Source: an uncultured Clostridium sp. (GTDB lineage Bacteria; Bacillota_I; Bacilli_A; RF39; UBA660). Taken from it: 35,131 nt of DNA. The notes under the pieces were generated by a model. The model was given only the letters and a program-made list of their open reading frames with translations, had not been told where the DNA came from and did not search any database. The DNA is taken from the NCBI GenBank assembly GCA_964652515.1, contig CAZZAK010000001.1, forward strand, positions 1 to 35,131, in the 5' to 3' direction. Every line of letters starts with the position of its first letter. The stretch's first letter is position 1. Shown piece after piece: positions 5,866 through 27,942 of the stretch. The position numbers and the translations under genes are program-made.

Positions 5866-6792
5866 ATGCAAAAAGATTTCAAAACTATTGACCAACAGAT
5901 AGATATATTAAAGAATAAAGGGTTAATAATTGATGATTATGACAAAGCTAGTGAAATACTTTTGAAGGAAAATTACTTTTTCATTAATGGTTATAGATAT
6001 TTGTTTATGAATTCAAATGATGATAGATCATTTATTAGGGGTACTACTTTTAATGAACTATATTCTTTGTTTTTATTTGATAGATATATTAGAAATATAT
6101 TGTTTAAGAATTTGCTTATATTTGAAAACAATTTTAAATCAGTTATTTCTTATCAATTGTCTAAGAAGTATGGTTATAAGGAAAAAGATTATTTGAATGT
6201 TAAAAACTTTACTGGGGATCCTTCTAAGAAGAGAAGAGTAAAAGATGTTATTGAAAAGATGAAAAGACAAATTAGAATTAATGTATCTAGACATTCTGCT
6301 ACATTACATTATTCTAGAAGTTATGGGTATATTCCGTTATGGATTTTGGTTAAAGTTCTGTCATTTGGCTTGATGTGTGAGTTATTTTCTATATTAAAAA
6401 ATCAAGATAAGGATGAAGTATCATCAGTATTCCATTTGACGATTGAAGAACTTGAAAATTTCTTACCAATATTATCTAATTATCGTAATTTATGTGCTCA
6501 TGAAGATATTGTTTTTGATCATAAAACTGAAAAATACATTGTTGATACAGAATATCACGAGAAACTTAAGATATTTAAAATGGATGATGAGTATATTTAT
6601 GGTAAGAATGATTTGTTTGCGGTTGTTATAATATTTAAGTATCTTCTTACAGATAGTGACTTTAGATTGTTTATGAAGGAATTTGAGTATGAGATTGAGG
6701 CTATGGATGGAAGAATAGAGGCTATTCCAAATAGTAAGATATTAGATCATATGGGATTTCCTAAAAATTATATGGATATTGTAGATTTATAG
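5866..6792 (+). CDS. Abi_2 family (AbiD/AbiF-like) abortive-infection protein
   Basis: The N-terminus KTIDQQIDILKNKGLIIDDYDKASEILLKENYFFINGYRYLF and the segment LSNYRNLCAHED are the hallmark segments of Abi-like (Abi_2) proteins. A possible extended -10, TGATATACT, lies at 5841-5849. Confidence 0.75.
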   Translation: MQKDFKTIDQQIDILKNKGLIIDDYDKASEILLKENYFFINGYRYLFMNSNDDRSFIRGTTFNELYSLFLFDRYIRNILFKNLLIFENNFKSVISYQLSKKYGYKEKDYLNVKNFTGDPSKKRRVKDVIEKMKRQIRINVSRHSATLHYSRSYGYIPLWILVKVLSFGLMCELFSILKNQDKDEVSSVFHLTIEELENFLPILSNYRNLCAHEDIVFDHKTEKYIVDTEYHEKLKIFKMDDEYIYGKNDLFAVVIIFKYLLTDSDFRLFMKEFEYEIEAMDGRIEAIPNSKILDHMGFPKNYMDIVDL

Positions 6793-6802
6793 AGGTGATA
6801 TT

Positions 6803-7897
6803 ATGAAAAATAAAAATAATTTGGGAGTGGTAATAATTGTTTCAATATTATTATCATTTGTTTGTGGGGTAATTGGTGCTTATTTGGTTGTTAATTCAAT
6901 GTCTACTAGCAACAAGGTTATAAAAAACATAACTACTTCTGAACTTGTAGAAAATAGTATAGCTAGTTCTGTGGATAATGTATACGGGGCTACTGTTGCT
7001 GTTATGTCTTATAATAATGATAATTTGAAGTCTACTGGTACGGGTTTTCTTTATAAGAAGGATTCAAATAAATACTATATTATGACAAATTATCATGTGA
7101 TTGATGGAGCTGATAAAGTTAAAGTATCTTTTAATGATAGTGATGAAAAAATAGATGCTACTATTTTAGGAGGGGAAGCTTATTCTGATATTGCTGTATT
7201 AACAATTAGTTCAAAAGATGATCATTTGGTTGTGGAAATTGGTGATAGTGAATCTATTAGACTTGGCGATACGATCTTTACTGTGGGTAATCCTATGGGT
7301 ATTGAATATAAGGGAACTGTTACTAAGGGGATACTATCAGGTAAGGAAAGATTAGTAGAAGTTAGTTTATCAGGTTCTGTATCTGACTATTATATGAAAG
7401 TATTGCAAATAGATGCGGCAGTTAATCCTGGCAATTCAGGTGGACCATTATGTGATGTTAGCGGTAAGGTTATTGGTATAATATCACTTAAGATTGTACA
7501 AGATTCTATTGAGGGAATGGGATTTGCTATTCCTATTGAAGATGCATTATCTTATGTTTCTAAAATAGAAAAAGGTGAAAAAATAGTTAGACCTTTTGTT
7601 GGCGTTAGTATGTTAGATTTATCTGATGAATATAATTTATGGAGATATCGTATAACATTACCAGATGATGTTAATGATGGCGTTGCTGTTTTAGAAGTTT
7701 CTTCTGATAGTCCTGCAGCAAAAGCTGGACTTAAGAAGGGTGATATAATTGTTAAAATCAATGATAATAAAGTTTCATCGATAGCTGAATTTAGATATGA
7801 ATTATATAAACATGAAGTAGGAGAAAAGATAGAATTAACAATATATCGTGATAATAAGAAACAAAAATTAACTGTTACTCTTGGTAAGAGTGAATAG
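6803..7897 (+). CDS. htrA: HtrA/DegP-family membrane-anchored serine protease with C-terminal PDZ domain
   Basis: N-terminal TM helix. Catalytic triad contexts are TNYHVI (His), SDIAVL (Asp) and GNSGGPL (Ser). PDZ-like segment: GVAVLEVSSDSPAAKAGLKKGDIIVKIN. Only 10 nt separate it from the abi gene, with RBS GAGGTGA. Confidence 0.9.
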   Translation: MKNKNNLGVVIIVSILLSFVCGVIGAYLVVNSMSTSNKVIKNITTSELVENSIASSVDNVYGATVAVMSYNNDNLKSTGTGFLYKKDSNKYYIMTNYHVIDGADKVKVSFNDSDEKIDATILGGEAYSDIAVLTISSKDDHLVVEIGDSESIRLGDTIFTVGNPMGIEYKGTVTKGILSGKERLVEVSLSGSVSDYYMKVLQIDAAVNPGNSGGPLCDVSGKVIGIISLKIVQDSIEGMGFAIPIEDALSYVSKIEKGEKIVRPFVGVSMLDLSDEYNLWRYRITLPDDVNDGVAVLEVSSDSPAAKAGLKKGDIIVKINDNKVSSIAEFRYELYKHEVGEKIELTIYRDNKKQKLTVTLGKSE

Positions 7898-7923
7898 CAC
7901 TAATTAAAATAGTGCTTTTTCTT
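7896..7923 (+). terminator. Rho-independent terminator after htrA
   Basis: AGCACTA (7896-7902), loop ATTAAAA, TAGTGCT (7910-7916), then a T-run. Confidence 0.6.
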
Positions 7924-8005
7924 TGAAAAAAATATAATAAATAACTTTCAAAAATTGACATATTATGATAAAATGATTATGTATATAGTAGAAGGAGAGA
8001 TGTAT

Positions 8006-8539
8006 ATGAAAAAAATTGGGAGTTTTATTTGGAATATAATTGTTATTGCTTGGCTTATAGTGGCGATTTTTGTCACAGTTTGTCTTCTTTCTTATAATGA
8101 TTATAGAGTTATTAAATTTGGTAATAGTTCTTTACTTATTATGGATAGTGATGAATTAGAACCAGATTTTCATGAAGGAGATTTATTAATTGTAAAGCGT
8201 AACAGTAATAAGATGATTAATGTTAATGATAAGGTATTTTATTATAATACTGCTAAAGATAGTAATACTTTAATATATACAGGTACTGTTAATGGTAAGA
8301 GGGAAATTACTAAATCAGAAACAACCTTTGATGTTGATGGACAAAAGGTGTCTTCTGAACATGTTATTGGTAAGTTTGATACTGCTAAAGTATTTCATAA
8401 TTTTGGTACTATTCTTGGAGTATTTACTTCTAAATGGGGATTTATGTTTTTAGTTATATTCCCTACATTGTTTGCTATTATTTATGAAATAATAGCTATA
8501 TTTGATGCTATAAAAGAATCAAAAAGAGAAAACGCTTAA
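8006..8539 (+). CDS. SipW-like signal peptidase paralog lacking all catalytic residues (pseudo-peptidase), two terminal TM helices
   Basis: The topology and the ELEPDFHEGDLLIVK segment align with SGSMEPxFxxGDxxxVK of SipW-type peptidases, but the nucleophile Ser is Glu. THR(I/V) is replaced by YTG, and the GDNN box is absent. The ATG at 8006 follows GAAGGAGAG. The longer ORF-track start at 7955 is the TTG of a TTGACA box. Confidence 0.6.
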   Translation: MKKIGSFIWNIIVIAWLIVAIFVTVCLLSYNDYRVIKFGNSSLLIMDSDELEPDFHEGDLLIVKRNSNKMINVNDKVFYYNTAKDSNTLIYTGTVNGKREITKSETTFDVDGQKVSSEHVIGKFDTAKVFHNFGTILGVFTSKWGFMFLVIFPTLFAIIYEIIAIFDAIKESKRENA

Positions 8540-8540
8540 T

Positions 8541-9095
8541 ATGAAGAAAAGATTAATTATAATATCTTTAATTATTTTGTTAGTTACATCAGTTGTTTTG
8601 ATGGATACATATGCGTTGTTTGAGACAAATGCTAATGCTACGAAGGAACTTACCAAAGGTAAGTGGATAATTGAAATTAATGGAGAAGATATTACAGAAA
8701 CTGAGACTATTACGCTAGATGATTTTGTATATGATAATTCAATTCATACACAAGATGGTTATTTTGCTCCAGGAAGTGATGTATATTTTGATATAGAAGT
8801 AGATACATCAGAGTCTGATGTTTCTGTTATATATGAAATAGATATTGATGATAGTGCTTTGGATGATCATCCTAATATATCTTTTAGTGTAGAGAATTTA
8901 AATACTTTAGAAGAAGTAGATGAATTTCCAATGACAGATACGATTCTTTTAAGTGACAATGATAGAACTATTACTTTAAGAATTCATTTGACATGGGAAG
9001 ATGATGAAGATTATGACCAGGATGATACTTTATTAATTGATGGAGAATTAGCGTTTACAATTACTGCTAATTTTAAGCAGTATTTAGGTTTATAA
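8541..9095 (+). CDS. Exported protein with SipW-cognate signal peptide, TasA/camelysin-superfamily-like (putative fibre/matrix subunit)
   Basis: MKKR + hydrophobic core + DTYALFETNANAT (cf. the GTxAxF motif of TasA/camelysin signals). C-terminal W-acidic loop (RIHLTWEDDEDYDQDD) and terminal strand FTITANFKQ. Confidence 0.6.
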   Translation: MKKRLIIISLIILLVTSVVLMDTYALFETNANATKELTKGKWIIEINGEDITETETITLDDFVYDNSIHTQDGYFAPGSDVYFDIEVDTSESDVSVIYEIDIDDSALDDHPNISFSVENLNTLEEVDEFPMTDTILLSDNDRTITLRIHLTWEDDEDYDQDDTLLIDGELAFTITANFKQYLGL

Positions 9096-9121
9096 AAAAG
9101 AATAAGAAGGGAAGGTGCATA

Positions 9122-9928
9122 GTGATAGCTTTTAAGAAAATTGCTAAGTGGATAATGAATGTTTTTACAATTATCTTGCTTATAATACTATCTTTAGTAA
9201 TTTATGGAAAAGCTACTACTGTTTCTAAGGGTAGTTATCCAAATTACTTTGGATATACTTTTTTTGAAGTAGCTAGTGGCTCTATGGAACCTACTCTTCA
9301 TATTAATGATGTTATATTGGTAAAAATAACAAAAGAAAATTTAAAAAAAGGTGACATTATTGCTTTTCATCAGGATGATGCTATTATTACTCATAGAATT
9401 GTTTATATTGATGGAGAAGTGTTAACAGTAAAAGGTGATAACAATAATACGATTGATAATCCTATAGTGGTCAATGATGTTATAGGTAAAATAGTTAAGA
9501 TATATCCTGAATTAGGAATATGGAAGAAAGTTTTGAAAGAACCTAAAATACTAGCTTTAATTTTTGTCACGATGTTACTTTTTGATTTTGCTTTATCATA
9601 TGATGGTAAGAAAGACAAGAAAGTAAAAGAAAAGAAAGAAGAAATAAAAGAAGTTGTTTCTTATGAAGTACCTAAGAAAAAGGAAAATCATGAGAGTGAA
9701 GAATTACTTTCTTTAACTAGAAAGATTGATGTTTCTGAAATTAATAAATTACTTGAGGAAAGTAATGATAAAGAAACTAAAAAAGAAGTAGAAAAAGTTA
9801 AGACTGAGATGGTTAAGGAGGAAAATATTTTTCCAGAAGAACCTAAGAAAAAGGAAAAAAATATAGATTATACTGTTCGTTTGGACTTAAATGAGATTCA
9901 TAAAAAGGTTGACGAACGAATGAGGTGA
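9122..9928 (+). CDS. sipW: Signal peptidase I, SipW (archaeal/ER) type, with a long Lys/Glu-rich C-terminal extension
   Basis: VASGSMEPTLHINDVILVK (Ser box), IITHRIV (His box), VKGDNN. A C-terminal TM helix is followed by about 100 aa of a KE-rich tail. GTG start after GGGAAGGTG. Confidence 0.8.
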   Translation: MIAFKKIAKWIMNVFTIILLIILSLVIYGKATTVSKGSYPNYFGYTFFEVASGSMEPTLHINDVILVKITKENLKKGDIIAFHQDDAIITHRIVYIDGEVLTVKGDNNNTIDNPIVVNDVIGKIVKIYPELGIWKKVLKEPKILALIFVTMLLFDFALSYDGKKDKKVKEKKEEIKEVVSYEVPKKKENHESEELLSLTRKIDVSEINKLLEESNDKETKKEVEKVKTEMVKEENIFPEEPKKKEKNIDYTVRLDLNEIHKKVDERMR

Positions 9929-9933
9929 AAATA

Positions 9934-10530
9934 ATGAAAGGAATTAGAAAGATATTTTTAAATATTAATTATAAAAAATTAACAAAATATTTGTTTCTTT
10001 CTTTCCTTTTGTTAATAACATTAATTTTATTTGGAACATTTGATTTTACTCAAGCTAGATATGAGAGTGAAGTAGAAGTATCAGGTGGTCCTACATTGGC
10101 TTTCTTTATTGTAGATGTTACCACTCAGAGTGGTCATATTAAGTTAGATGAAATGATACCTAGAACTGAACCTTATACTTATACTTTTAATGTGTCTAAT
10201 TTTAATAATCAAAAGAGAGCTAATGTTGATTTAACTTATACGATAGAAGTTATTACTACTACTAATATGCCATTAAATTTTCAAATATTTAAGGGTAATG
10301 ATATGAATACTATGCAAGTAGATCATGATACTACTACTACAGATGAAAATGGAGTATATTATAGACATTTAGTAATTGATGATGCTTCAATAATGACATA
10401 TAGTGCTAATCATACTGATACATATACTTTATGGGTTGAGTTTCCTTTGGAAAATAAGGATTATCCTGATAAATATGAAGGTATTATTGATTTAGTAGAT
10501 ATAAAAATAGTAGCTGAGCAGGTAGTTTAA
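9934..10530 (+). CDS. Exported protein with SipW-cognate-like signal peptide, TasA-superfamily-like
   Basis: The ATG at 9934 lies 5 nt after GAGGTGA (the GTG at 9925 lies within the RBS). Hydrophobic core + GTFDFTQARYESE. DTYTLWVEFPLENKDYPD, and terminal strand DIKIVAEQ. Confidence 0.55.
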   Translation: MKGIRKIFLNINYKKLTKYLFLSFLLLITLILFGTFDFTQARYESEVEVSGGPTLAFFIVDVTTQSGHIKLDEMIPRTEPYTYTFNVSNFNNQKRANVDLTYTIEVITTTNMPLNFQIFKGNDMNTMQVDHDTTTTDENGVYYRHLVIDDASIMTYSANHTDTYTLWVEFPLENKDYPDKYEGIIDLVDIKIVAEQVV

Positions 10531-10531
10531 T

Positions 10532-11452
10532 ATGAAAAAGAAAATAAAGTATAAAAAAATTATTATATTGATTATGGCAATATTATTCTTAATATTTGTT
10601 GGGCCTATTTTGGCTAAGTTTGTAACTGATACGTATCATAGTTACTATCTTAGTTCTAAACATTTTTATTTTACTAGTAATAGATTAAAAAAGAACAATC
10701 CTACTTATTTAGTTAATAATTGGTCTGGTGTTGGATCTTTTAATATTGATGTAGGACTTAGTTCTATGAAAAACAGTTTGGTTTATTCAGATTATGATAT
10801 TCCTTATACTATAAGATGTGTTTGCCCTACTGGTGTAACATGTAGTTTTGATAAGACAAGTAGTACTATCTATGGTGCTGATCCTAATCATGCTGATTCT
10901 GTGGTATTATCAGTTAATCCTGGTAGAACATATTCGGAAAACGAGAGGTTATCTATTTATATTGAAGCTTCTAGTACAGCTCCTTATGTGGAAACTATTG
11001 GTGCTTATTTTGAATATGTTGTTGGTAAGCAAGGTGTTACTTATGAGATAGAGGATGAAGCTAATAGGCCTTATTTGATATTAAAAATTACTAGTGCTAT
11101 AAATTTCTGTAAGGTTACTAGTGCTTTTCTAACTTATCAAGTAAATGATATAATTAGTAGTAATACTTATGTTACTTTGTCTCCGGAAAATAAATTGAAA
11201 TGCGCTAGTAAAAAAATTGATTTGAGTTTTAATCCTAGTGTTATATTGTTGGATACTACAAGTAATATTGTTGATGTGAGTACTTATACTACACAAACTA
11301 TATCTTCTGTTGATTATATTAATAGTCTTTCTTTTGGAATTGGTCCTGTTAGTACAATGGCTATTAAATTTTATAAGGTGAATGTTAGTAATAATTATAC
11401 TTATCCATACGAAAATAGCAGTAGTGTTGTTACAGTTAATGTTCATGATTAA
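10532..11452 (+). CDS. Exported or membrane-anchored protein of unknown function (6 Cys), part of the SipW/TasA-like operon
   Basis: MKKKIKYKK + hydrophobic core + ILAKFVTDTYHSYY. Starts 1 nt after the upstream stop. No recognisable enzymatic motif. Confidence 0.5.
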   Translation: MKKKIKYKKIIILIMAILFLIFVGPILAKFVTDTYHSYYLSSKHFYFTSNRLKKNNPTYLVNNWSGVGSFNIDVGLSSMKNSLVYSDYDIPYTIRCVCPTGVTCSFDKTSSTIYGADPNHADSVVLSVNPGRTYSENERLSIYIEASSTAPYVETIGAYFEYVVGKQGVTYEIEDEANRPYLILKITSAINFCKVTSAFLTYQVNDIISSNTYVTLSPENKLKCASKKIDLSFNPSVILLDTTSNIVDVSTYTTQTISSVDYINSLSFGIGPVSTMAIKFYKVNVSNNYTYPYENSSSVVTVNVHD

Positions 11453-11465
11453 TTGAGGTGATTTT

Positions 11466-12443
11466 ATGGACTACAATATTGTTGATAAATATATTAATTT
11501 TATTAGAGAATCTTATATGGATTTATGTAAGATAGTATTTAAAAGTAATTGTAAGAAGGAATTATGTTTAGCTTTTATAGAGAAATATATTACTGTTAGA
11601 TATTATAATGAAACTAATTATCCTGGGGAAAAAGATTTTATTAATAGAATTAATAAAGAATTATTAGATTTATTAGATAAATTGGTACTTGATGATAATT
11701 TAGATGATCTTAAAAATATTGTAGCTTTGTTTGGATATATATTCTATTTTGATGATGTTTGCGTTATGACTAGGGAGATGGAAGTTATAGATGCAATTAT
11801 TAATGATGGTATTATTAAAATATCTAATAGTGATAATATGCATGAGGAACTTAAGAGTTGGTATCTTAGTTATAATTTAAATAAAGAGAGATTTCATGAT
11901 GCAATTAATACTAAGAAATTTAATTTAGTAGAAGAAAAAATACATCATAGATTATATAGTTTAGTATTAGAACATAGTGTTAGAATATCTAATTTATATA
12001 GTGAATATGCTATTGATAAGGCTTATAATAGTGGAGTAGTTAATGAAGATAAGTTGTTTGTTACTTATATATTGGCTTCTAATACGGTTTTAAGTAATGC
12101 TATTAATTTAGATTTTTCTAAGTATTATCTTGTTTCTTTAGCTAGTACTTTATTTACTAAAGAGAAGAAGATTAGTAGATTACTTAATGTTATAGATAAT
12201 CCTTTATCTAAGAAGTTTATTCATATTAAGGTTACTTATACTGATTATAAGGAAAATAAAAATATGATAGATAAACTTATTAATTCTGGATATTCATTTA
12301 TTATGGAATTAGATTCTAAGTATTCAGGAGATAGCAATATGTTGTATTTATTTCCATATATAATGGTACAAAAGGATAGCCCTGAATATGAAATGTTAAT
12401 GAGAGATAAAGATTATCTTAAATCTAAGATTATTAAGTTTTAG
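11466..12443 (+). CDS. Cytoplasmic protein of unknown function; first gene of the McrB-like cassette
   Basis: RBS GAGGTGA. No TM helix or signal peptide. The C-terminal half (IHIKVTYTD...GYSFIMELDSKYSGDS...LFPYIMVQKD) could be read as a degenerate EAL-type barrel or as D...(D/E)xK. The ambiguity is unresolved. Confidence 0.5.
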   Translation: MDYNIVDKYINFIRESYMDLCKIVFKSNCKKELCLAFIEKYITVRYYNETNYPGEKDFINRINKELLDLLDKLVLDDNLDDLKNIVALFGYIFYFDDVCVMTREMEVIDAIINDGIIKISNSDNMHEELKSWYLSYNLNKERFHDAINTKKFNLVEEKIHHRLYSLVLEHSVRISNLYSEYAIDKAYNSGVVNEDKLFVTYILASNTVLSNAINLDFSKYYLVSLASTLFTKEKKISRLLNVIDNPLSKKFIHIKVTYTDYKENKNMIDKLINSGYSFIMELDSKYSGDSNMLYLFPYIMVQKDSPEYEMLMRDKDYLKSKIIKF

Positions 12444-12452
12444 GAGGTAAAA

Positions 12453-13976
12453 ATGGATACATTTTTAAGGTTTTTATATGAATTTTTATCACAATTTTTT
12501 AATGGTCTTAAATATATGGTATTAGGTATATTCAACGGTTTTAAAAGTATATTTAATTTACCTGAATATGTAAAAGTTATTAATGAATATAAAAATGATT
12601 TTTCTATTCCTGAATGGTTACTTGTAGCGGTGGTTATTTTAGTTACTTTGGCTTTACTTGCTTTGATTATATTTATGGTATATTTCTTAATTAGAAAGTA
12701 TATTAGAATAAGGAAGTCTTTAGTGGAACAAGAATCTTTGCTTGAAGAGGTTAGTACTTTAAATAACGAAGTAGCTAAATTAGTAAAAGAAAAAGAAACT
12801 ATTTTGGCTATGAAGGTATCTAAGCTAGGACTTAAGCCTGATGAATCTGATGTAGAAGAGGGCGGTGGGGAATCTGATAATGTAGATCCTAATACAGAAA
12901 TTAGATTTCCTAAATTATATGAAGTTGATAATAAATTTAAGGATTATAAGGTAGCTAATTATGGTAATACATTTGAATTACCTGAATTAGTAGAGTTATT
13001 TAGAAATTTTGCTGCTAGTCATTTAAGATTATATTATACTACAGATATGATTAGATTATTTATATCAGCATTAGCTTCAACAAAACTTGTAATTTTACAA
13101 GGTATATCTGGTACAGGTAAGACATCTTTGGCTTATGCTTGGGGAAAATTTTTGAAACATGACTCTTGTATTGCTTCAGTACAACCATCTTGGCGTGATA
13201 GAACAGAGTTATTTGGATATTTTAACGAATTTACTAAACGTTTTAATGAGACAGAAGTGTTAAAAGAAATGTATGTTGCTGGATATACTGATGATGTATA
13301 TACAGTAATACTAGATGAAATGAATATCTCTCGTGTGGAATATTATTTTGCAGAAATGTTATCTATACTAGAGATGCCTAATAAAGATGAATGGATAGTA
13401 GAAATAGTACCTAGTGCTTGGAAGAGTGACCCAGTTCATTTAATGGAAGGTAAATTAAAGATACCTCCTAATATGTGGTATATTGGTACGATCAATAATG
13501 ATGACTCAACGTTTATGGTTACTGATAAGGTTTATGACCGTGCTATGCCTATTGATATTAATGATAAAGGTCAAGTTTTTGAACCTGAAGATATTCCTGC
13601 ACAGGATATTAATTATTCATATTTGGATAAGAAGTTCCAAGATGCTATTAGTAATAATCCTATTCATGAAGATAATTTGAAAAAGATTGAAGCTATGGAT
13701 GATTATGTTATTCAACATTTTAGAATAGCTTTTGGTAACAGAATTGTTGCCCACATGAGAAAATTTGTTCCTGTATTTGTAGCATGTGGGGGAGATGAAA
13801 TTAGGGGTATTGATTACTTTATAGCTCGTAAGATATTAAGAAAATTTGAACAATTAAATATTGCTTATATAAGAGATGAAATTGATGGATTTGTTAAGTT
13901 CTTGAATGATAATTTTGGTGAAAACAAGATGAGTGAATGTATTGAATATCTATTGAGACTTAAGAAAATGGCGTAG
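12453..13976 (+). CDS. Membrane-anchored McrB-like AAA+ GTPase (N-terminal TM helix + coiled coil + McrB-type AAA+ core)
   Basis: RBS AGGAGGT. TM helix WLLVAVVILVTLALLALIIFMVYFLI followed by RKYIRIRK. Walker A LQGISGTGKTS. Walker B and following helix VILDEMNISRVEYYFAEMLSILE (McrB-type DExN...E). NMWYIGTINNDDST matches the McrB NxxD (MNTAD) segment. Confidence 0.7.
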   Translation: MDTFLRFLYEFLSQFFNGLKYMVLGIFNGFKSIFNLPEYVKVINEYKNDFSIPEWLLVAVVILVTLALLALIIFMVYFLIRKYIRIRKSLVEQESLLEEVSTLNNEVAKLVKEKETILAMKVSKLGLKPDESDVEEGGGESDNVDPNTEIRFPKLYEVDNKFKDYKVANYGNTFELPELVELFRNFAASHLRLYYTTDMIRLFISALASTKLVILQGISGTGKTSLAYAWGKFLKHDSCIASVQPSWRDRTELFGYFNEFTKRFNETEVLKEMYVAGYTDDVYTVILDEMNISRVEYYFAEMLSILEMPNKDEWIVEIVPSAWKSDPVHLMEGKLKIPPNMWYIGTINNDDSTFMVTDKVYDRAMPIDINDKGQVFEPEDIPAQDINYSYLDKKFQDAISNNPIHEDNLKKIEAMDDYVIQHFRIAFGNRIVAHMRKFVPVFVACGGDEIRGIDYFIARKILRKFEQLNIAYIRDEIDGFVKFLNDNFGENKMSECIEYLLRLKKMA

Positions 13977-13983
13977 GTGAGTT

Positions 13984-15093
13984 ATGGATAAATTAAAAGT
14001 GGTTGACTTATATGAGAAAGCTAATGAGACTAAGGGTGTAAAATTTAATAATAATATTCGTTCTAATTTAACTGTTAGTACAGATATGAAGAGAGTAGAA
14101 GTAGATTTTGAATGGTTAGATTTAATGGAGGATACTATTAAGTACTTAGATAATATTTTAAGAAATCCTAACAGATTTATTGTTAACGAAGAAGAGATTG
14201 TTAAGGTGGAACTTGCTAGAAGAATAACGGTAGAGAGTATTAGACATTTATCTAAGCATACTAACTATATTCAAAAGATAGAGGATAATGGTGATGTTAA
14301 ACCTTCTAAAATACTTAATATTCAAAAAGATGAGAGTTATGATACATATGAAAATAGGCTTATTTATACTTTAATTGAGAATATGCGTAATTTTTTAGAA
14401 TTAAAGAAAAAAAGTTTGGTTACTTCTGCTAGTTTAAAAGATGTTAAGAAAGCTAAATATAGTGCTAAAAGTATGGTTGGTAAAGAGCAAGTGTTTTTAG
14501 AAATGAATTATACTTCTAGTTTGATGGATAAAAAAGAACCTAAAGGTGAAATTCCTTTAGCTGATAGATTACAAAGACTTGATGATGATATTACAATGTT
14601 AACCAATACGGATGTATATAAGACATTAAAAAAATTACATGTTGCTAGAGTTATCCCTCCGATTAAGAAAACAAATGTAATTTTGAAAAATACAAACTTT
14701 CAGTATGCTATGAAGTTGTGGGATTATTTGCAGGAACATGTTGCTAATGATACAAAAGTTGTTAAGAGTAATCGTAAGTATGAAGAAAGTGGTGTATTGA
14801 AAGAGTATATGGATAATACTTTCTTATTAGATTTTTTGGCAATGGATACTTTATCAGAGGTTGATAGTAAAGAGAAAGAAATGGAAGTTATTGAAGAAAT
14901 TACTGATAACTTACTTCAAAGAATAGTGGAGCTTAATGTTGATATGCCGCTTACTACTTTGAAAGAAAAAATTGGAGATAAGATAGCTATTATTAAGTAT
15001 CGTAAGGAAGCTAGTTTGGCTGAGATACAAAATACTTTTTCTAAGGCTATTAAGGATTATTTAGAAGATATAGAAAATTTAAAATTAGGGTGA
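13984..15093 (+). CDS. McrC / DUF2357-like N-terminal domain protein without a recognisable PD-(D/E)xK nuclease
   Basis: RBS AGGTGA, 7 nt after the McrB-like stop. SYDTYENRLIYTLIENM resembles the conserved DTxxNRxIKxxL segment of the McrC N-terminal domain. The C-terminal half is acidic and helical and has no hydrophobic-strand D...(D/E)xK motif. Confidence 0.5.
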   Translation: MDKLKVVDLYEKANETKGVKFNNNIRSNLTVSTDMKRVEVDFEWLDLMEDTIKYLDNILRNPNRFIVNEEEIVKVELARRITVESIRHLSKHTNYIQKIEDNGDVKPSKILNIQKDESYDTYENRLIYTLIENMRNFLELKKKSLVTSASLKDVKKAKYSAKSMVGKEQVFLEMNYTSSLMDKKEPKGEIPLADRLQRLDDDITMLTNTDVYKTLKKLHVARVIPPIKKTNVILKNTNFQYAMKLWDYLQEHVANDTKVVKSNRKYEESGVLKEYMDNTFLLDFLAMDTLSEVDSKEKEMEVIEEITDNLLQRIVELNVDMPLTTLKEKIGDKIAIIKYRKEASLAEIQNTFSKAIKDYLEDIENLKLG

Positions 15094-15097
15094 TGAT

Positions 15098-15649
15098 ATG
15101 AAAATACTTTATAAGATTATTAAAGGGATTATTACTGTGTTTTTATTAATAGTATTATCTTTAGTTATATTTCAAAAAGTTACTAATAATAAAATAGTAG
15201 TTGGTAATGTATATGTTTTTCAGGTTGCTTCTGGGTCTATGAAGCCTTATTATAAAATAGGTGATATTGTAGTAGTTAAAAAAACAGATGCTTCTTCTTT
15301 AAAAGTTGGCGATGATGTTACTTACTTGGGGCGCGAGAGTAATTTAAATGGCCTTGTTATTACACATAGAATTATTTCTATTAGAGATGATAATGGTAAA
15401 CTTTATTTTACTACTAAAGGTACTGCTAATGATGTAGAAGATCCTGAAATTACTATTGATGATATATATGGTAAAGTTATGTATAAGACTATTTTATTTA
15501 GTTTTGTTGGTAGGCTTATGACTAATATTACTGTTTATTATTTATTGTTTGTATCAGTGGGAGTGGCTTTTGCTTATGAAGTCATTACAGCATTTTTTAT
15601 AAAGGATGATGATAGTGATGATAAAGAAAAGGAAGAAGATAAAGTTTAA
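15098..15649 (+). CDS. sipW: Signal peptidase I, SipW (archaeal/ER) type
   Basis: VASGSMKPYYKIGDIVVVKK (Ser box), VITHRII (His box), TKGTANDVED. N- and C-terminal TM helices and an acidic tail. Confidence 0.8.
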   Translation: MKILYKIIKGIITVFLLIVLSLVIFQKVTNNKIVVGNVYVFQVASGSMKPYYKIGDIVVVKKTDASSLKVGDDVTYLGRESNLNGLVITHRIISIRDDNGKLYFTTKGTANDVEDPEITIDDIYGKVMYKTILFSFVGRLMTNITVYYLLFVSVGVAFAYEVITAFFIKDDDSDDKEKEEDKV

Positions 15650-16247
15650 AATATCAAGAATAATTTTTTTGATAGTTTTAATTGCTTCGAATACTTTTGC
15701 GTGGTTTATATATGCCAGTAAGGTAGATAGTGATGTATCTGTTCATATTAGAGCTTGGAATGTTGTGTTTGAGGGTGGAGATACGCAGACTTCTAGTATG
15801 ATTAACTTTGATGTTGATAGTGTTTATCCTGGTATGGAGGATTATTCATCTGATATTACGGCTTATAACTATAGTGAAGTATCTGCTAGTATGACTTTTT
15901 ACTTATTGGAAGCAAGAATACTTGGCGATACTTATGTTACTGAAGAAGGTAGGGCAGAAAGGGGCGAAACTCCTTTAGCAACAGATTTAACTAGTGCTGA
16001 ATTAATAGAACAGTTAGAAGAAGACTATCCTTTTACAATATCTTTTAATACTTCTAGTGCTACTATTGACTCTGTTGATGGCGAGGAAACTTTCACTCTA
16101 TCAGTAGTGTGGCCTTATGAGAGTAATAATGATGAATTAGATACAGAATGGGGAATAGCTGCTAATACATATAAAGAAAGCAATCCTAATAGTTCTAGCA
16201 TTGCTTTAAAAGTTAAAATTACAATTATTCAAAATAATCCTAGCTAG
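15606..16247 (+). CDS. Exported protein with SipW-cognate signal peptide, TasA-superfamily-like
   Basis: KKRKKIKFK + hydrophobic core + SNTFAWFIYASKVDSD. FTLSVVWPYESNNDELD, and terminal strand KVKITIIQ. The start is ambiguous (ATG 15606/15609, GTG 15615, ATG 15618). Every option overlaps the sipW 3' end by at least 32 nt. Confidence 0.6.
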   Translation: MMIVMIKKRKKIKFKISRIIFLIVLIASNTFAWFIYASKVDSDVSVHIRAWNVVFEGGDTQTSSMINFDVDSVYPGMEDYSSDITAYNYSEVSASMTFYLLEARILGDTYVTEEGRAERGETPLATDLTSAELIEQLEEDYPFTISFNTSSATIDSVDGEETFTLSVVWPYESNNDELDTEWGIAANTYKESNPNSSSIALKVKITIIQNNPS

Positions 16248-16264
16248 CTTTGACTAGCTTTTTG
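16242..16264 (+). terminator. Candidate terminator hairpin at the convergent gene junction
   Basis: AGCTAG (16242-16247), loop CTTTGA, CTAGCT (16254-16259), TTTTG. It lies within the 3' coding end of the minus-strand gene. Confidence 0.4.
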
Positions 16265-16843
16265 AATGAAGTTAATATTGACATCTACGCTGGCTATACC
16301 GTTCGCACTAGCTTCAGTATCGTCAGCGTTATCTAATTCTTCTCCTGTTCCATCGAACCATTCAATGTAGATACGATATGTTTCTGTTCTGGTTTGTTCT
16401 TCTAAGAGATGTGTTGCTGTTATTACTGTATCATTTGTGAAGGAAACAATGGGATCATTGTTTTTTTTGTATCCAGTGAATTTTATATCGGATACAGTAT
16501 TATCATTACTTAGTGATAAGGTTATTGTTTCATCAAATGATACTCCTACATCAGAATAATCTATTGTAATATCAAAGTATCCTGTGCTTGTTGGAGCTAT
16601 TACGCCACTGGCTATATTAGTGTTTGTATCATATACGGGGGTAATAGTGGTAGAAAAATCGCTATCATCTAATACATCCTGAGTATTAACAAGAAATGCC
16701 CATCTAGCGATAGTGAGGTCGCTAGTAGCATCAGCACTAGATATATATTTAGCATAAGTATCTTCAATCATATCTATAAGCAATATTAGAGAAATAAAAG
16801 CAATTATTAATCTTAATTTTCTGTTAGCTAGCAGCTTATTCAC
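16244..16843 (-). CDS. Exported protein with SipW-cognate signal peptide, TasA-superfamily-like (convergent paralog)
   Basis: GTG start 5 nt after AAGGAGGG. Hydrophobic core + EDTYAKYISSADATSD. APTSTGYFDITIDYSDVGVSF parallels APGSDVYFDIEVDTSESDVSV of 8541-9095. YRIYIEWFDGTGEELDNADD, and terminal strand VNINFIQ. Confidence 0.6.
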   Translation of the reverse strand: MNKLLANRKLRLIIAFISLILLIDMIEDTYAKYISSADATSDLTIARWAFLVNTQDVLDDSDFSTTITPVYDTNTNIASGVIAPTSTGYFDITIDYSDVGVSFDETITLSLSNDNTVSDIKFTGYKKNNDPIVSFTNDTVITATHLLEEQTRTETYRIYIEWFDGTGEELDNADDTEASANGIASVDVNINFIQKASQS

Positions 16844-17013: not shown

Positions 17014-17056
17014 ATATTTATATGATAGGGTATCATATTTATTATGGTGATTGTTT

Positions 17057-17770
17057 ATGGCTAGAGAAGTTATTGTAACTGCTGATAAAGTAAAGAATCG
17101 TAAGAAGCGAAGTAAAATTGTAAGAAGAGCTTTATTGATATTATTATTCTTTTTGATAGTACTGTATATTATATTGGATATTATATATAGTGAAGGAAGG
17201 TTTACTGTTACTTTGGATTCTAATAGAACTTTGGAAAGTGGGTTGGCAATATTTGATAGTCTAAATAATAGCCATGGTAAAAGGAAACTTGAGGCTACTC
17301 CAATAAAGTTTATGGATAATATTTCTTATAAATGGATACCGGATGGTGTTGATAAGGAAGCAGACGGCCCACATAATGGACAAAATTACATTGCTTATAG
17401 TTTTTATGTAGAAAATCAAGGTGAGCGGGTTCTTAATTATCACTATGAGGTTATTGTGGATGATATTATTAAGAATGTTGATAATGCTATTAGGATAAGA
17501 ATTTATCGTAATGGAGAATATACTACATATGCTAAGCGTGATACTATGTTTGATACTATAGAAAAAAATACTGTTCCATTTAAGGAAATAAAAGAATCTG
17601 AAGGAACTATCATTTTGGAGAAAGTTGCTAATTTTAGACCTGATGACTTAGACAGATATACTGTGTTGGTATGGTTAGAAGGCGATGATCCTGATTGTAC
17701 TGATGCTTTATTAGGTGGCGAAATTAAAATGCATATGGTAATAACCGAAGAACATATTGAACAAGGTTAG
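17057..17770 (+). CDS. Single-pass membrane protein (N-in) with an extracytoplasmic domain sharing the W-x-E-G-x-D-x-D-C motif with the downstream gene
   Basis: ATG at 17057 after GGTGA. KNRKKRSKIVRR + TM helix ALLILLFFLIVLYIILDII. YTVLVWLEGDDPDCTDALLGGEIKMHMVI parallels MRIYMWIEGQDLDCENNASGTDITFKLELS of 17782-18903. Confidence 0.55.
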   Translation: MAREVIVTADKVKNRKKRSKIVRRALLILLFFLIVLYIILDIIYSEGRFTVTLDSNRTLESGLAIFDSLNNSHGKRKLEATPIKFMDNISYKWIPDGVDKEADGPHNGQNYIAYSFYVENQGERVLNYHYEVIVDDIIKNVDNAIRIRIYRNGEYTTYAKRDTMFDTIEKNTVPFKEIKESEGTIILEKVANFRPDDLDRYTVLVWLEGDDPDCTDALLGGEIKMHMVITEEHIEQG

Positions 17771-17781
17771 GAGTGAAATTA

Positions 17782-18903
17782 ATGAAAAATAAAAGGGAAG
17801 AAAAAAGAAATAAGAAAGTTAGAACGCTGATATTATTATTGTTTTTGACAATTATAATGTTTGGTACATCAACTTATGCATGGTTTACTGCCAATAGAGT
17901 AGTTACTATCGAAGCTATTGATGTAAGAGTTGAAACTAGTGATGGTTTGCAGATATCTACTAATGGTAGTACATGGAAATCTATTATTACAAAGGATGAA
18001 ATATTAGCTGGTTATACTGGTCATAATAATTTTGTACCTGATGTATTAGATGCTGTATCTACTAGTGGTAATGCTCCAATTGCTAGTGGTAAGAGACTTA
18101 TGGATATGTATGGCAGTACTATTGAATCTGAAGTTGGAGTTAATGATGGTAAATATACTATCTATACTACTAAGATTGATGAGACTGCTGCACAAAAGAA
18201 ATTTATTGCATTTGATATTTTCTTAAAAGTAAGTAGTAATAAGACTGTTTATATTAATAGTGATGCTGGTTCATATTCAGAAGTTATTAAAAGATCTGGT
18301 GATACTTATGCGGATCGTGGATTAAAGAATGCTGCTAGAATTGCTTTTGTTCCTACTGGTGAAGCTGCAGCTGAGGCTTCTATTGCTAATATTACTGGTG
18401 CTATATATACTACTGGTGATCCTGATAATCCTGTTCCTAGTGTTAAAATATGGGAACCTAATAATGATACTCACTCAACTGCTGTTGTAAATAGCGTTGC
18501 TACTGAATATGGTTATACTGGTGTTACTGCTACAGGAAGTACACCAATTCAATATTATGGTATTAAGGATGCTATCCCTTCTACCAATAAAACAGATTTA
18601 ATTAATACTGTAAAGGGTACTGTTACTTCATATAATGATGGTACTGATGATATTACTTTCTCAGAGGCTGTTACTACTGGTACTGTTACTGACTCTACTG
18701 ATTATTCTACAGCTGGTATATTGTTATCTACTCCTGCTACTTTAGCTAGTGGTAAGAATTATAAAGCTTTTGATTTAAAAGCTGGTATTACTAAGATGCG
18801 TATATATATGTGGATTGAAGGACAAGATCTTGACTGTGAAAATAATGCTTCTGGTACTGATATTACATTTAAACTTGAATTAAGTATTAGAGGAAATACG
18901 TAG
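17782..18903 (+). CDS. Thr/Gly/Ala-rich exported protein with SipW-cognate signal peptide; candidate major fibre subunit
   Basis: The ATG at 17782 lies 8 nt after AGGAG (the GTG at 17773 overlaps the RBS). KNKREEKRNKK + hydrophobic core + GTSTYAWFTANR. Composition and codon choice (gct/ggt/act/gtt) look like a highly expressed structural protein. A strong terminator follows directly. Confidence 0.6.
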   Translation: MKNKREEKRNKKVRTLILLLFLTIIMFGTSTYAWFTANRVVTIEAIDVRVETSDGLQISTNGSTWKSIITKDEILAGYTGHNNFVPDVLDAVSTSGNAPIASGKRLMDMYGSTIESEVGVNDGKYTIYTTKIDETAAQKKFIAFDIFLKVSSNKTVYINSDAGSYSEVIKRSGDTYADRGLKNAARIAFVPTGEAAAEASIANITGAIYTTGDPDNPVPSVKIWEPNNDTHSTAVVNSVATEYGYTGVTATGSTPIQYYGIKDAIPSTNKTDLINTVKGTVTSYNDGTDDITFSEAVTTGTVTDSTDYSTAGILLSTPATLASGKNYKAFDLKAGITKMRIYMWIEGQDLDCENNASGTDITFKLELSIRGNT

Positions 18904-18998: not shown

Positions 18999-21900
18999 AT
19001 GTTGCAGTTAAAAGAATGGATTTATAAACATAAAATAATTCTTATTTTAGCAGTTATACTTACTGTTCTTTTGTCATGGAATTTTATTCATTCTTTTAGT
19101 GAAACTGTATCTGATAATTCGTGGGATGGAGTAGTTGCTACTGAATTTTCTTCTGGTAATGGTACAAGAGATAATCCATATGTTATAACTAGTGCTTCTG
19201 AATATGGGTATTTTAAAGAATTACTTGAGGGTAGTGATGCTTCTTTATATTTAGATAAATATTATGTTATTACTGATAGTTTTAATTATGGTAACTATAG
19301 TATATCTATTAATAATATTCTACCTTTTACTGGTACTTTGGATGGTACTGGTCATAGTATATATGGTGCTACTTTAAATAATTCGTTATTTAATGAATTA
19401 GATGGTGCTACTATTAAAAATATTAAGTATAGTTTAAATATTACAAGTGATAAGACTTCTGGTATTTTATCTAATAGCATTAATGATACGAAATTATCTT
19501 ATTTTATCTTGGATGGTTCTATTAATGGGAATAATTCTGATATTACTGTATCTGGTATAGGTAATACTATTAGTAATTCAGAAATTGAAAACATTGTTAT
19601 AAATGTTGATGCTAATTCTTCTAATTATGTGTCTATTTCTAATAATATTAGTTCTACTACTATTAATAATGTGTTAGTAAGAACTGGTTATAATCATTTA
19701 TCTTTTGATAGTGAATATGAAGTGGATGAATTTTCTATTAATAATGGAAATGTTATTGTTTCTGGTTTAGATAAGTATGCTAGTGAAGATTATAAAATAG
19801 TTATTAATAATAATAGTTTTTATGTTTCTTCAAGTGAAATTGTTCTAGAACCTGAAAATGAATCGGGGTTATCTAAGAATTTAACTTCTCTAAAAGGATT
19901 AAGAAGTGCTTCGATAACAGTACATGATTCAGGGATTGTAACTGCTGATCATGCTATTTATATTAACGATCTAACAAGTGATTATAATTATTATATGGGT
20001 CTTAATTATACTAAAATTACTAATACTAATGGTACTATTCCTACAGGTACTAATCAAAATTTATATAGTAATTCTAATTTGGCTACTGTATATATTAGGT
20101 ATAGTAGTGCTGATATTAATGATTCTAGTATGTATGGATCTGTTAGTGTTTCAGAGGATATTAGGGATTATTATTACTATAAGAGATATCCTGTGGTAAA
20201 TGGTTATATTACTTTTGATTTGATTGATAGTCCTTGGGCAAATAGACCTACTGATATGGCATTTAATGGATGGGTAACTGATTATGATGGTGCTACTATT
20301 TCTTTGGATATGGACACTTATGTTAGAAGTGTTAAGATACCTGTATCTGATATAAGTAATCCTATTTCTATTACATTCTATTCTAGTTGGACTATAGCAT
20401 CTGTAGTTACTACAACTACTTTTACTAATTTGAAAAGTGTTGGTATGAATGCTCTTACACCTTCTTATGGTGATTTAACTATTTATTATGTAACAGCTAG
20501 AGTTAATAATAATAGTAATTATCCTAATAGTAATGATTTGTATGATTTAAATGGTAATCATATAACAAGTGGTAGTAGATGTAGAACGTCTGGTGGTTGT
20601 ACTTATTTAACTAGAAATACTAATAATACATATAATGCTAATACTAGTTATTATAGTGTTACTCCTAATGGTAATGGACCTGCTACTGTTACTAGAGTAT
20701 ATCCTCAGCAAAAACCAATTCCATATTATGATGGAGGTAGTGCTGCTGGATACTTTATTAGAGTTACTAGTGGTACTGAAAATATATATTCTTCTACTGG
20801 TGTTAAACAGGATAGTTGTAGTGGGACATGTTATAAATTGCTTCAATACAGTGATGGAAATATAACTAGTGGTACAACGTATTATTATTTAACGACTAGA
20901 GATACTAATATTTTTGCTCCTACTAGTACTAATAATATTACTGCAAATAATATATCTTCTACTAAACCTATGACAATTACTGGTATTCATAATGGAACTG
21001 ATAATAGTAATAGTCGTACTCTTAGAATGACTGATGATTGGGAAATAGCTGCTGATATTAGAATAGAATTTATTCGCTTTTATGTTAGTGATACTACTAC
21101 TAATGTTTCGGAATTTGATTCTGATGGCTATGAAATAATTGGTAATTTTAAAAATGTTAAATTAGGTAGAGGTTTAAAAAGAAATGGTAGTAATTTAACG
21201 GCTAATAGTTTTGTTGGCGGCTCATCAAGTTCTGCTACTACTCTTTCTAAGTATACGTTTATCGTAGAATCTGGCTTTTATCAAACTGGTAGTGCTGTTG
21301 GTTATGGTAGTGCTGTTACACACAGAGTACTTGCTAATGTAATTTTAGGTAGTGATTATGATAGAATAAGTAGTAATGGTAATAACAATTTAATTGTTTA
21401 TTATGCTTATGCTGGTTCTTGGGGTTCTAATTTATATAATAGTTCAAATAGTTCTAATTCTTATGATACTCCAGCAATTTATACTGTTGTCAAAAGTGGT
21501 TCTTTTGGGACAAATAAGGCTGATTATGCTGCTGGTATTTATGTTGGTGGACGTTCTAGAGGTACACACTATTCTTTACGTGAAGCTTTAGTCGAGGGTG
21601 GGTACATATATAATTTGATTGGTGGACCTTCTTCTGATGATGGCAGAGCTTCTAAAAATGATATTATTATTAATGTCAAAGGTGGAGAAATTGACTTAGT
21701 CTTTGGTGGTGCTGGTGCTTCTGATACTGTGGGTAATAAGATATTAAATATTACTGGTGGTACGATTAACTATAGTATTGTTGGTGGTTCTAATGCGGCA
21801 GAGTATAGCTCTAGTACAAGTAATCCAAATGGTAAGATTGATGGCGATACTTTACTATATGTAGGTGGTAATGTTACTGTTGGTACTAAAAATGATAAAT

Positions 21901-27819: not shown

Positions 27820-27942
27820 ATGGAAGGAAATATTAAAGAGGTTTCTAATCAAGAATTAATTGAACTATACAGGTTAATAGTTAGTCATCAAGAATACTTA
27901 AATAGTGAACTTGAAAAGGTTAAGGAAGAGGAAAAAGAATGA
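27820..27942 (+). CDS. Small 40-aa helical ORF, translationally coupled on both sides (not in the ORF track)
   Basis: The ATG at 27820 follows GTGAGGT, which overlaps the giant-gene stop. Product: MEGNIKEVSNQELIELYRLIVSHQEYLNSELEKVKEEEKE. Its TGA overlaps the next ATG (ATGA at 27939-27942). Confidence 0.45.
   Translation: MEGNIKEVSNQELIELYRLIVSHQEYLNSELEKVKEEEKE

Follow-up and report, generated by a model that had tools for sequence, protein, structure and literature searches.

A window of 35,131 nucleotides (nt) was analysed from an uncultured Clostridium sp. (GTDB lineage Bacteria; Bacillota_I; Bacilli_A; RF39; UBA660), comprising positions 1 to 35,131 of the forward strand of contig CAZZAK010000001.1 in assembly GCA_964652515.1. 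It carries a putatively membrane-tethered relative of the GTPase McrB and, immediately downstream, an apparently nuclease-free relative of McrC that contains the DUF2357 domain; both genes lie within a close-packed run of genes for SipW-type signal peptidases and secreted proteins. The order sipW–AAA–DUF2357–sipW was conserved across lineages, and the window is a clean core-genome example of CoCoPALM, a class named in three sentences, with analysis deferred, by Bell, Makarova, Wolf & Koonin (bioRxiv 2023 / eLife 2024, PMC11090510). We lean slightly towards the reading that the AAA+ protein, its DUF2357 partner, and a 325-amino-acid (aa) protein encoded just upstream (U325) form a cytoplasmic, GTP-driven module of the CoCoPALM type that would assemble or control fibre subunits processed by SipW. 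An initial annotation of this DNA, made from its letters, had drawn attention to the three open reading frames (ORFs) as a unit of 325-, 507-, and 369-aa proteins. All three proved real, and the motifs quoted for them (the transmembrane helix, RKYIRIRK, GISGTGKTS, VILDEMN, NNDD, and DTYENRLIY) lie where listed here, all on the forward strand:

11466 to 12443, forward: U325, 325 aa; predicted helical N-terminal domain (about residues 1-147) and degenerate EAL-like alpha/beta barrel (about 150-325), from an AlphaFold2 (AF2) model and Foldseek.
12453 to 13976, forward: predicted transmembrane-anchored, McrB-like AAA+ GTPase of the NxD branch, 507 aa, from a PDB profile search, PADLOC, and motifs.
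12615 to 12692, forward: predicted transmembrane helix WLLVAVVILVTLALLALIIFMVYFLI, residues 55-80, checked in translation.
12693 to 12716, forward: basic stretch RKYIRIRK, directly after the transmembrane helix.
12717 to 12827, forward: predicted helical stalk with heptad-like pattern, residues 89-125, checked in translation.
13101 to 13127, forward: Walker A motif GISGTGKTS; G217, G220, G222, and K223 invariant in 42 diverse homologues.
13305 to 13325, forward: Walker B region VILDEMN, continuing as ISRVEYYF; aligns with DEINRA of E. coli McrB.
13494 to 13505, forward: sensor-1 N-N-D-D, an NxD variant with another acidic residue after it, from the family pattern.
13984 to 15093, forward: McrC-N-like partner, 369 aa, with DUF2357 (PF09823) at about residues 26-252 and a predicted helical tail of about 117 aa.
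14341 to 14367, forward: DTYENRLIY motif of the partner, checked in translation.

A Pfam scan of the 507-aa protein yielded nothing above threshold. When it was searched against the PDB as a single sequence, E. coli McrB, in three entries, matched best (E 1.2e-3); once 42 homologues were combined in a profile, McrB was the only AAA+ structure recovered (E 4.6e-6), and membership of MoxR or of another generic AAA+ clade was ruled out, no other AAA+ structure being matched by the family profile at E<=0.01. More distant members of the family matched Pfam AAA_5, the family of McrB, and the 507-aa protein itself was matched by a PADLOC candidate defence model (PDC-M26A, 1.4e-33). Across the 42 diverse homologues, D288, N291, R294, and E296 were invariant, as were the sensor-1 Asn and the arginines R363 and R430, and E289 was kept in at least 90%. 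Because the Walker A, Walker B, sensor-1, and arginine residues are invariant, the protein is likely an active nucleoside triphosphatase (NTPase). The sensor-1 pattern among 150 representatives was G-T-[AI]-N-x-D-[DE]-S, in which the Asn and the Asp two residues on were kept in essentially every sequence with a readable motif, and in which the fourth position could be D, E, Q, G, or A. What had been called an 'NxxD box' is therefore really the NxD variant which, 'usually followed by E or a second D', defines a major branch of McrB (PMC11090510).

The N-terminus of the 507-aa protein consists of the transmembrane helix and the stalk, and no DNA-binding family was detected in it by Pfam or NCBIfam. 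Kyte-Doolittle peaks were present in all homologues of about 500 aa, and there were weak matches to subunit b of ATP synthase, itself a transmembrane-plus-stalk protein (E 0.004), to FtsL_2 (E 0.07), and to TIGR04561 (E 0.0012). We thus place the protein among membrane-anchored AAA+ proteins of the McrB type, as first annotated, and specifically in the NxD branch; the transmembrane helix and helical stalk are predicted to tether it, with its bulk on the basic, cytoplasmic side of the tether.

For the 369-aa partner, the suggestion of a McrC/DUF2357 protein that has no nuclease was borne out by Pfam, which scored DUF2357 at 44 bits (gathering score 23.3) and returned the same family in 120 of the 120 partner homologues listed. 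Residues 27-252 aligned with the N-terminal 260 aa of the partner (650 aa) encoded at a CoCoNuT-like locus (E 4e-17). No nuclease family was recognized by Pfam or PADLOC, no conserved D…(D/E)xK occurred past residue 252 in 49 homologues, and the protein appears to have no room for a PD-(D/E)xK domain; we read it as a nuclease-free homologue of the McrC N-domain. Nine long partners from divergent lineages (484-989 aa) likewise all contained DUF2357 with no recognizable nuclease. Sequence and profile searches of the partner against the PDB returned no matches. Residues 237-364 were predicted to be helical in a low-confidence model with a predicted local distance difference test score (pLDDT) of 54.9, and Foldseek matches to that model (TolC, topoisomerase III, and MAT2A; probability <=0.3, template modelling score (TM-score) about 0.1) were discarded because the model was poor.

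Three SipW-type peptidase genes accompany this pair, recognized with the NCBIfam model for archaeal/SipW-type signal peptidase I (TIGR02228, cut-off 51.85 bits):

7955 to 8539, forward: sipW1, putative SipW-like pseudo-peptidase, first gene of the operon; true start probably an ATG near 8006.
9122 to 9928, forward: sipW2, active-type SipW with a predicted second transmembrane helix and a K/E-rich cytoplasmic tail; TIGR02228, 81.3 bits.
15098 to 15649, forward: sipW3, active-type SipW directly 3' of the partner gene; TIGR02228, 87.5 bits.

Ten co-directional genes (sipW1, T1, sipW2, T2, X306, U325, AAA+, DUF2357, sipW3, and T3; the secreted T and X proteins are listed further below) occupy 7955-16247, bracketed by a terminator-like hairpin at 7896-7916, just 5' of sipW1, and by a bidirectional terminator-like hairpin at 16242-16259, at the 3' end. 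The junctions around the U325, AAA+, and partner genes are, as had been reported, 13, 9, 7, and 4 nt, with a ribosome-binding site of the GGTGA/AGGAGG type 5' of every start codon at these junctions. Since the hairpins bracket the genes and each gene has its own ribosome-binding site, we read 7955-16247 as a single transcription unit, that is, one close-packed operon.

The motifs SGSM(E/K)P and THR were kept by sipW2 and sipW3. sipW1 fell below the NCBIfam SipW/TIGR02228 cut-offs, has SDELEP where SGSMEP would be expected, and has no THR motif; in a crude regular-expression search, the Ser and His pair was missing from 60 of its 61 orthologues. On these grounds sipW1 looks like a pseudo-peptidase, probably a catalytically dead signal-peptidase-like protein. 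In one divergent locus (L165, 11610-14576), a single 989-aa ORF joins a DUF2357 partner to a SipW-type Peptidase_S26 domain (residues 786-846); this fusion is a single example, corresponds to two separate genes in sister loci, and could reflect an assembly error or a lost stop codon.

The AAA+ gene was present in 246 species-representative genomes, all of them uncultured metagenome-assembled genomes from gut or rumen labelled as Bacilli, Erysipelotrichaceae, Tenericutes, or 'Clostridium sp. CAG:…', which we take to be small-genome Bacilli of the RF39 type. Loci were compared in the best 80 of the 246 genomes, in which the AAA+ protein was 70-93% identical. Synteny extended from 7955 to about 27812, the outer flanks differing, and the order sipW1–X306–U325–AAA–DUF2357–sipW3–T3 was essentially invariant, with sipW3 directly after the partner in 77 of the 80. 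The AAA+ gene is by far the best conserved of the cluster: over the 80 species its median identity was 74%, whereas the partner reached 49%, U325 33%, and the peptidases and subunits 31-44%. The AAA+ protein is thus much more constrained than its obligate-looking partner or U325. A second scan, seeded with distant transmembrane-anchored homologues, gave 79 usable metagenome loci of 25-57% G+C. Where the contig left room, the DUF2357 partner adjoined AAA+ in 62 of 64 of these and the partner was followed by a SipW gene in 49 of 53; in 51 of 67, SipW lay immediately 5' of the AAA+ block, and secreted proteins of the Y239/Z376 type (below) were usually found 5' of the block.

The conserved core across lineages is therefore sipW–AAA–DUF2357–sipW; the trio that had been put forward as the unit is not, its 325-aa member being a lineage-specific accessory. 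Because gene order was kept in about 80 species loci and in 79 divergent loci, the embedding in a SipW operon is not incidental; the initial annotation was right to consider it genuine, the flanking sipW genes passing the NCBIfam model and the synteny being both strict and wide. Chance insertion of an ordinary restriction island of the McrBC type into an operon for surface proteins would account for the sequence homology to McrB and DUF2357, and for little else: the proteins have no DNA-binding domain and no nuclease, the base composition is that of the surroundings (about 27% G+C across the whole window, with no compositional break at 11466-15093), and about 160 loci, in lineages spanning 25-57% G+C, have the module in the same position. 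The synteny data refute this explanation, to which we give almost no credence.

U325 matched no family in Pfam, NCBIfam, or PADLOC, and neither sequence nor profile searches against the PDB gave matches. Its AF2 model was of good quality (pLDDT 88.9; predicted TM-score 0.85), and the top Foldseek matches to the PDB were nearly all EAL domains (Bd1971, FimX, BifA, MorA, and YdiV; probability 1.00), with E-values from 5e-4 (Bd1971) to 1e-2 and, for the FimX EAL domain, E 1.2e-3 and TM-score 0.52 over about 205 columns. The Pfam EAL profile matched neither U325 nor any of 50 homologues, even at E<=1, and by eye the strands of U325 carry YLVSL, HIKVTY, ELDSKYSG, and VQKD, apparently in place of the metal-binding residues. 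Given EAL folds in Foldseek and an unmatched Pfam EAL profile, U325 is best described as a helical N-domain followed by a sequence-degenerate EAL-like barrel, as modelled; an early guess that this protein might be EAL-like thus agrees with the result at the level of fold.

Detectable homologues of U325 numbered only about 200. In two sister lineages a SipW protein carries the U325 homology in its C-terminal, cytoplasmic part (L125 and L168; E 6e-32 and 7e-28; hhalign probability 98.7): ORFs of 631 aa (L125, 5095-6987) and 648 aa (L168, 8051-9994) have an N-terminal SipW, a K/E-rich linker, and C-terminal U325 homology, and both fusion genes sit directly upstream of the transmembrane AAA+ gene. 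Default HMMER bias filters gave no matches to U325 in the divergent loci, where the homology was seen only with --max. The idea that every lineage has a U325-like gene was rejected: apart from the SipW fusions of L125 and L168, the divergent loci yielded one weak match, in L084. A GGDEF-like motif (RWGGEEF) was noted in a 366-aa ORF fragment at the flank of the cluster on a related contig (L018), which hints at cyclic di-GMP (c-di-GMP) signalling in at least some carriers of U325.

With the AAA+ core (about residues 145-505), 8,296 representatives were retrieved at E<=1e-3. They fell into three architectures: proteins of about 500 aa, like the present one, whose N-terminus has one or two transmembrane helices; proteins of 560-700 aa that have four or five; and soluble proteins of 700-870 aa. 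The soluble relatives occur as helicase, unknown gene, AAA+, and long partner (L081 and a Polaromonas plasmid), which is the published CoCoNuT layout. Some transmembrane forms are found away from SipW, as tandem AAA+/partner pairs beside giant leucine-rich-repeat (LRR) or other surface proteins, or beside envelope genes. Two loci of 43-45% G+C (L085, 6988-11503; L087, 6692-11482) encode two-helix AAA+ proteins in tandem AAA+–partner–AAA+(–partner) arrays that adjoin giant LRR_5 or other proteins of >2000 aa, with no SipW in view. At a third locus (L084, 4623-8264; 26.5% G+C), a weakly U325-like 384-aa gene, a 500-aa transmembrane AAA+, and a 324-aa partner immediately follow the phage-type genes DUF859 and Phage_holin_1; no other phage-adjacent example was seen. 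Phages and plasmids hold essentially no full-length relatives: one relative was found among 2.9 million viral contigs, along with one phage record, and 72,556 plasmids held none, the only matches there being to the AAA+ core of soluble relatives at <=39% identity.

These distributions bear on whether the module serves immunity. Pili are common phage receptors, and one could imagine a CoCoNuT-derived sensor that guards the fibre, detecting phage attack on the pilus or damage to the envelope and responding, with no nuclease, for instance through a block on subunit processing, release of fibres, or growth arrest. Consistent with such an immunity or conflict module are the homology of the AAA+ protein and partner to CoCoNuT and McrBC, which adjoin helicases in island-like contexts, the match of the AAA+ protein to a PADLOC candidate defence model, and the position of the L084 relative beside phage holin and DUF859 genes. 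Defence genes are normally patchy and fast-evolving, however, whereas, over about 246 species genomes, this AAA+ gene is near-universal, holds a fixed position, and is inherited vertically; moreover, no effector domain was detectable by Pfam or PADLOC, phages and plasmids are essentially free of relatives, and the fusions observed are with SipW rather than with effectors. Bell et al. treated CoCoPALM as a CoCoNuT-like clade (PMC11090510), a further point for an immune role, which on balance we consider rather improbable. One of the two initial readings, a defence module lodged in the fibre operon, is a poor fit for the same reasons: the genes are core, vertically kept, and nearly absent from mobile elements.

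Comparison with described systems places the locus more precisely. That the arrangement was undescribed, as first thought, is wrong, since the class already bears the name CoCoPALM, for an NxD-branch McrB GTPase fused to an FtsB-like transmembrane/coiled-coil domain and associated with the signal peptidase family, whose members are regarded as likely pilus assembly factors (PMC11090510). No details on CoCoPALM were found in the supplementary text files of that paper, and literature searches found no follow-up; an apparent mention of McrB in PMC11580942 was rejected as relevant, being only an E. coli strain genotype. As judged from its proteins, the locus matches CoCoPALM on the features tested: an NxD GTPase, an N-terminal transmembrane helix with helical stalk, linkage to signal peptidases (three SipW-type genes in the operon), and a DUF2357 partner. 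Homology specifically to FtsB was not seen, the related profile matches being the weak ones given above; for the coiled coils that CoCoPALM has in both its McrB and its McrC homologue, the locus offers the predicted helical stalk and, in a low-confidence model, the helical tail of the partner. The locus differs in a separate gene of predicted EAL fold, fused to SipW in sister lineages, in a partner that at 369 aa is unusually short (480-990 aa elsewhere), in a putative pseudo-peptidase paralogue of SipW, and in having the small subunits T1-T4 as an additional family. As far as we could find, the EAL-fold accessory and its fusion to SipW, the predicted pseudo-peptidase, and the short nuclease-free partner are reported here for the first time.

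Resemblance to CoCoNuT (CnuB/CnuC) lies in the AAA+ core, 35-42% identical to the soluble 700-870-aa relatives, in the alignment of the N-terminal 250 aa of the partner (E 4e-17), and in a third gene upstream of the GTPase. CoCoNuT GTPases, however, are soluble, with long coiled coils and adjoining UPF1-like helicases, and have HEPN or other nucleases linked to them in every case (PMC11090510), whereas here a transmembrane anchor is predicted, no nuclease is seen, and the neighbours are SipW genes. With classical McrBC (E. coli K-12; PDB 6ut6, 6hz4, and 7vsr) the locus shares an AAA_5/McrB-type AAA+ with Walker A and B motifs and sensor-1 Asn, and a separate DUF2357 partner encoded immediately downstream; it differs in having no N-terminal DNA-binding domain and no PD-(D/E)xK, in carrying NxD rather than NxxD, in its predicted membrane tether, and in its core, non-island context. 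The tapA-sipW-tasA operon of Bacillus subtilis and the sipW-bsaA-bsaB-bsaC operon of Clostridium perfringens are comparable in combining a dedicated archaeal-type peptidase with paralogous subunits whose N-termini have an aromatic-rich motif past the hydrophobic core, but they include no NTPase, and the present locus has three SipW paralogues and a 2937-aa protein.

For U325, the C-terminal domain matches the EAL folds of FimX and YdiV, all of them with no recognizable catalytic EAL profile, and its gene adjoins a fibre-system NTPase; FimX, a degenerate EAL receptor for c-di-GMP, acts on PilB via PilZ. There is no sequence similarity of U325 to FimX or YdiV, no GGDEF or PilZ partner was seen in the operon, and the likeness in role is one of analogy only. 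For sipW1, the nearest parallel is SipA/LepA of Streptococcus pyogenes, a signal-peptidase-like protein described as essential for pilus polymerization (PMC4049620). sipW1 keeps the peptidase fold signature and lacks the catalytic Ser and His; this points to a role resembling that of a chaperone, not to catalysis. SipA/LepA works with sortases, none of which was found here, and the inactivity of sipW1 is predicted from its motifs.

The assembly or control reading that we lean towards may be drawn out as follows. In McrBC, McrC occupies the pore of McrB and activates hydrolysis (Niu et al. 2020, as related by a citing paper). By analogy, the AAA+ protein would form a hexamer, and a finger of the DUF2357 partner would enter its pore and switch on GTP hydrolysis. 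The ring would then spend that energy at the membrane instead of on translocation or cleavage of DNA, acting through its own stalk and transmembrane segment and through the cytoplasmic tails of SipW. As a result, the processing, extraction, and polymerization of the signal-anchored fibre subunits would be driven or gated, and the EAL-like U325 might serve either as a scaffold or as a regulator that senses a nucleotide, by analogy with the action of FimX on the ATPase of type IV pili. Recruitment of the module to the fibre system, the second of the two initial readings, is favoured by the strict and wide synteny and by the two kinds of SipW fusion.

Several points weigh against this scheme. We infer the hexamer, the specificity for GTP, and every protein–protein contact from relatives and motifs, and the evidence on the CoCoPALM class is computational throughout. 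The nearest soluble AAA+ relatives are of the CoCoNuT type, predicted defence systems, and the PADLOC match points the same way. The partner model being poor, its 'finger' and helical tail are low-confidence features, and the EAL call on U325 comes from one Foldseek search, with TM-scores of about 0.4-0.5 and about 12% identity. The likeness of the subunits to TasA, though plausible, is weak. Finally, fibres of the TasA and BsaA type, the nearest known ones that depend on SipW, are described as assembling outside the cell by donor-strand exchange with no dedicated cytoplasmic NTPase (PMC9674648, PMC11580942).

The same genomic-context evidence would suit a membrane quality-control or secretion-stress module, in which the AAA+ ring extracts jammed precursors, cleaved anchors, or mis-assembled subunits near SipW. 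The many signal-anchored subunits and the giant protein would create the need for such a module, which would not itself drive polymerization; the SipW-less relatives, too, adjoin giant LRR or other surface proteins, and many AAA+ rings are protein extractors (FtsH, Cdc48, Msp1). Rings of the McrB type, though, are not known to thread polypeptides, and with McrC filling the pore of McrBC (Niu et al. 2020, again through the citing paper) there would be no obvious channel for a substrate. The operon itself encodes neither a protease nor a partner for degradation, and an HtrA-like gene at 6803-7897 is syntenic in the closest relatives only. We regard this explanation as unlikely.

Extending the assembly or control reading to the whole class, CoCoPALM might represent a new class of pilus or fibre biogenesis, distinct from type IV, sortase, chaperone-usher, and plain TasA systems. 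In it, a McrBC GTPase would have been exapted as a membrane-tethered motor, the McrC N-domain as activating rotor or plug, and paired SipW proteins, one of them dead, as a subunit-feeding platform, with second-messenger control by an EAL fold; it would be a core trait of gut and rumen small-genome Bacilli and widespread in other Bacillota. We offer this fuller proposal tentatively and with some doubt.

McrBC is a textbook DNA restriction motor. If the favoured reading is true, a defence machine has been exapted for cell-surface biology through loss of DNA binding and nuclease and gain of a membrane anchor, and some SipW-dependent fibres need cytoplasmic energy, a need that the TasA/BsaA model, as it stands, does not include. 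Small-genome Bacilli of gut and rumen, uncultured and very abundant, are the carriers, and the cluster of about 20 kb is among their conserved features; it therefore likely matters for attachment to hosts, particles, or other cells. For a class that was named in 2023/24 and left unanalysed, the core gene order, the missing nuclease, the SipW fusions, the predicted EAL fold and pseudo-peptidase, and the non-mobility provide testable hypotheses.

The remaining features of the cluster are secreted or surface proteins:

8541 to 9095, forward: T1, predicted secreted subunit with SipW-type N-terminus (…DTYALFET…), paralogue of T2, T3, and T4r.
9925 to 10530, forward: T2, predicted secreted subunit paralogue; hhalign to T1 and T4r, probability 95-96.5.
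10532 to 11452, forward: X306, predicted signal-anchored secreted protein, always directly upstream of U325; same position in 76 of 80 species loci.
15606 to 16247, forward: T3, predicted secreted subunit, closing the operon; present at 76 of 80 species loci.
16244 to 16843, reverse: T4r, convergent, predicted secreted subunit paralogue; hhalign T1 versus T4r, probability 100, E 3e-73.
17051 to 18903, forward: Y239 and Z376, predicted signal-anchored secreted proteins with C-terminal W-[IL]-E-G-x-D-x-D-C.
18999 to 27812, forward: giant surface protein of 2937 aa with predicted N-terminal hydrophobic anchor; relatives in 59 of 80 species loci.

T1, T2, T3, and T4r form one paralogous family (hhalign probability 95-100, except T2 against T3 at 86), and the TYAWF-type N-terminus of the T proteins recurs in Z376. 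T1 had no match in Pfam or the PDB, X306 matched no family in Pfam or NCBIfam, and profiles of T3 and Z376 found nothing in the PDB. The secreted subunits of the window gave nothing significant to TasA or camelysin in Pfam, NCBIfam, or PDB profile searches; when 42 of their relatives were scanned with Pfam and NCBIfam, TasA was matched by one (E 7.7e-4) and Peptidase_M73 by one (E 1.1e-3), both marginal, and membership of the TasA family was not assigned. Of the claim that pairs of sipW and TasA-like genes bracket the operon's central genes, then, the sipW part stands, and the 'TasA-like' label is weakly supported by that single marginal relative. The first 44 nt of the T3 ORF as listed (15606-15649) lie within the end of sipW3, and its translation begins MMIVMIKKRKK; its real start may be an internal ATG.

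The Y239 and Z376 genes (17051-17770 and 17773-18903) encode the C-terminal motifs …VWLEGDDPDC… and …MWIEGQDLDCENNASG…, respectively, and match no known family. It is these families, not the small T proteins, that accompany the transmembrane AAA+ gene in all divergent lineages (25-57% G+C). The giant protein contains many short repeats of the G-G-x-N/S type and was empty in Pfam; it may serve as an adhesin or may itself be the anchored fibre. Immediately 5' of the operon are an abortive-infection-like Abi_2 gene (5866-6792) and the gene at 6803-7897, which encodes an HtrA-type protease (Trypsin_2 and PDZ). Both were rejected as parts of the system and are probably unrelated to it, since they are syntenic in the three closest relatives only. 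Downstream of the giant protein, at 27939-29459, lies a gene for a 506-aa, cytoplasmic-looking protein with a charged N-terminus and no family match. In 16-17 related genomes this gene lies between the giant protein and sipW1, from which the cluster appears to be circularly permuted between genomes.

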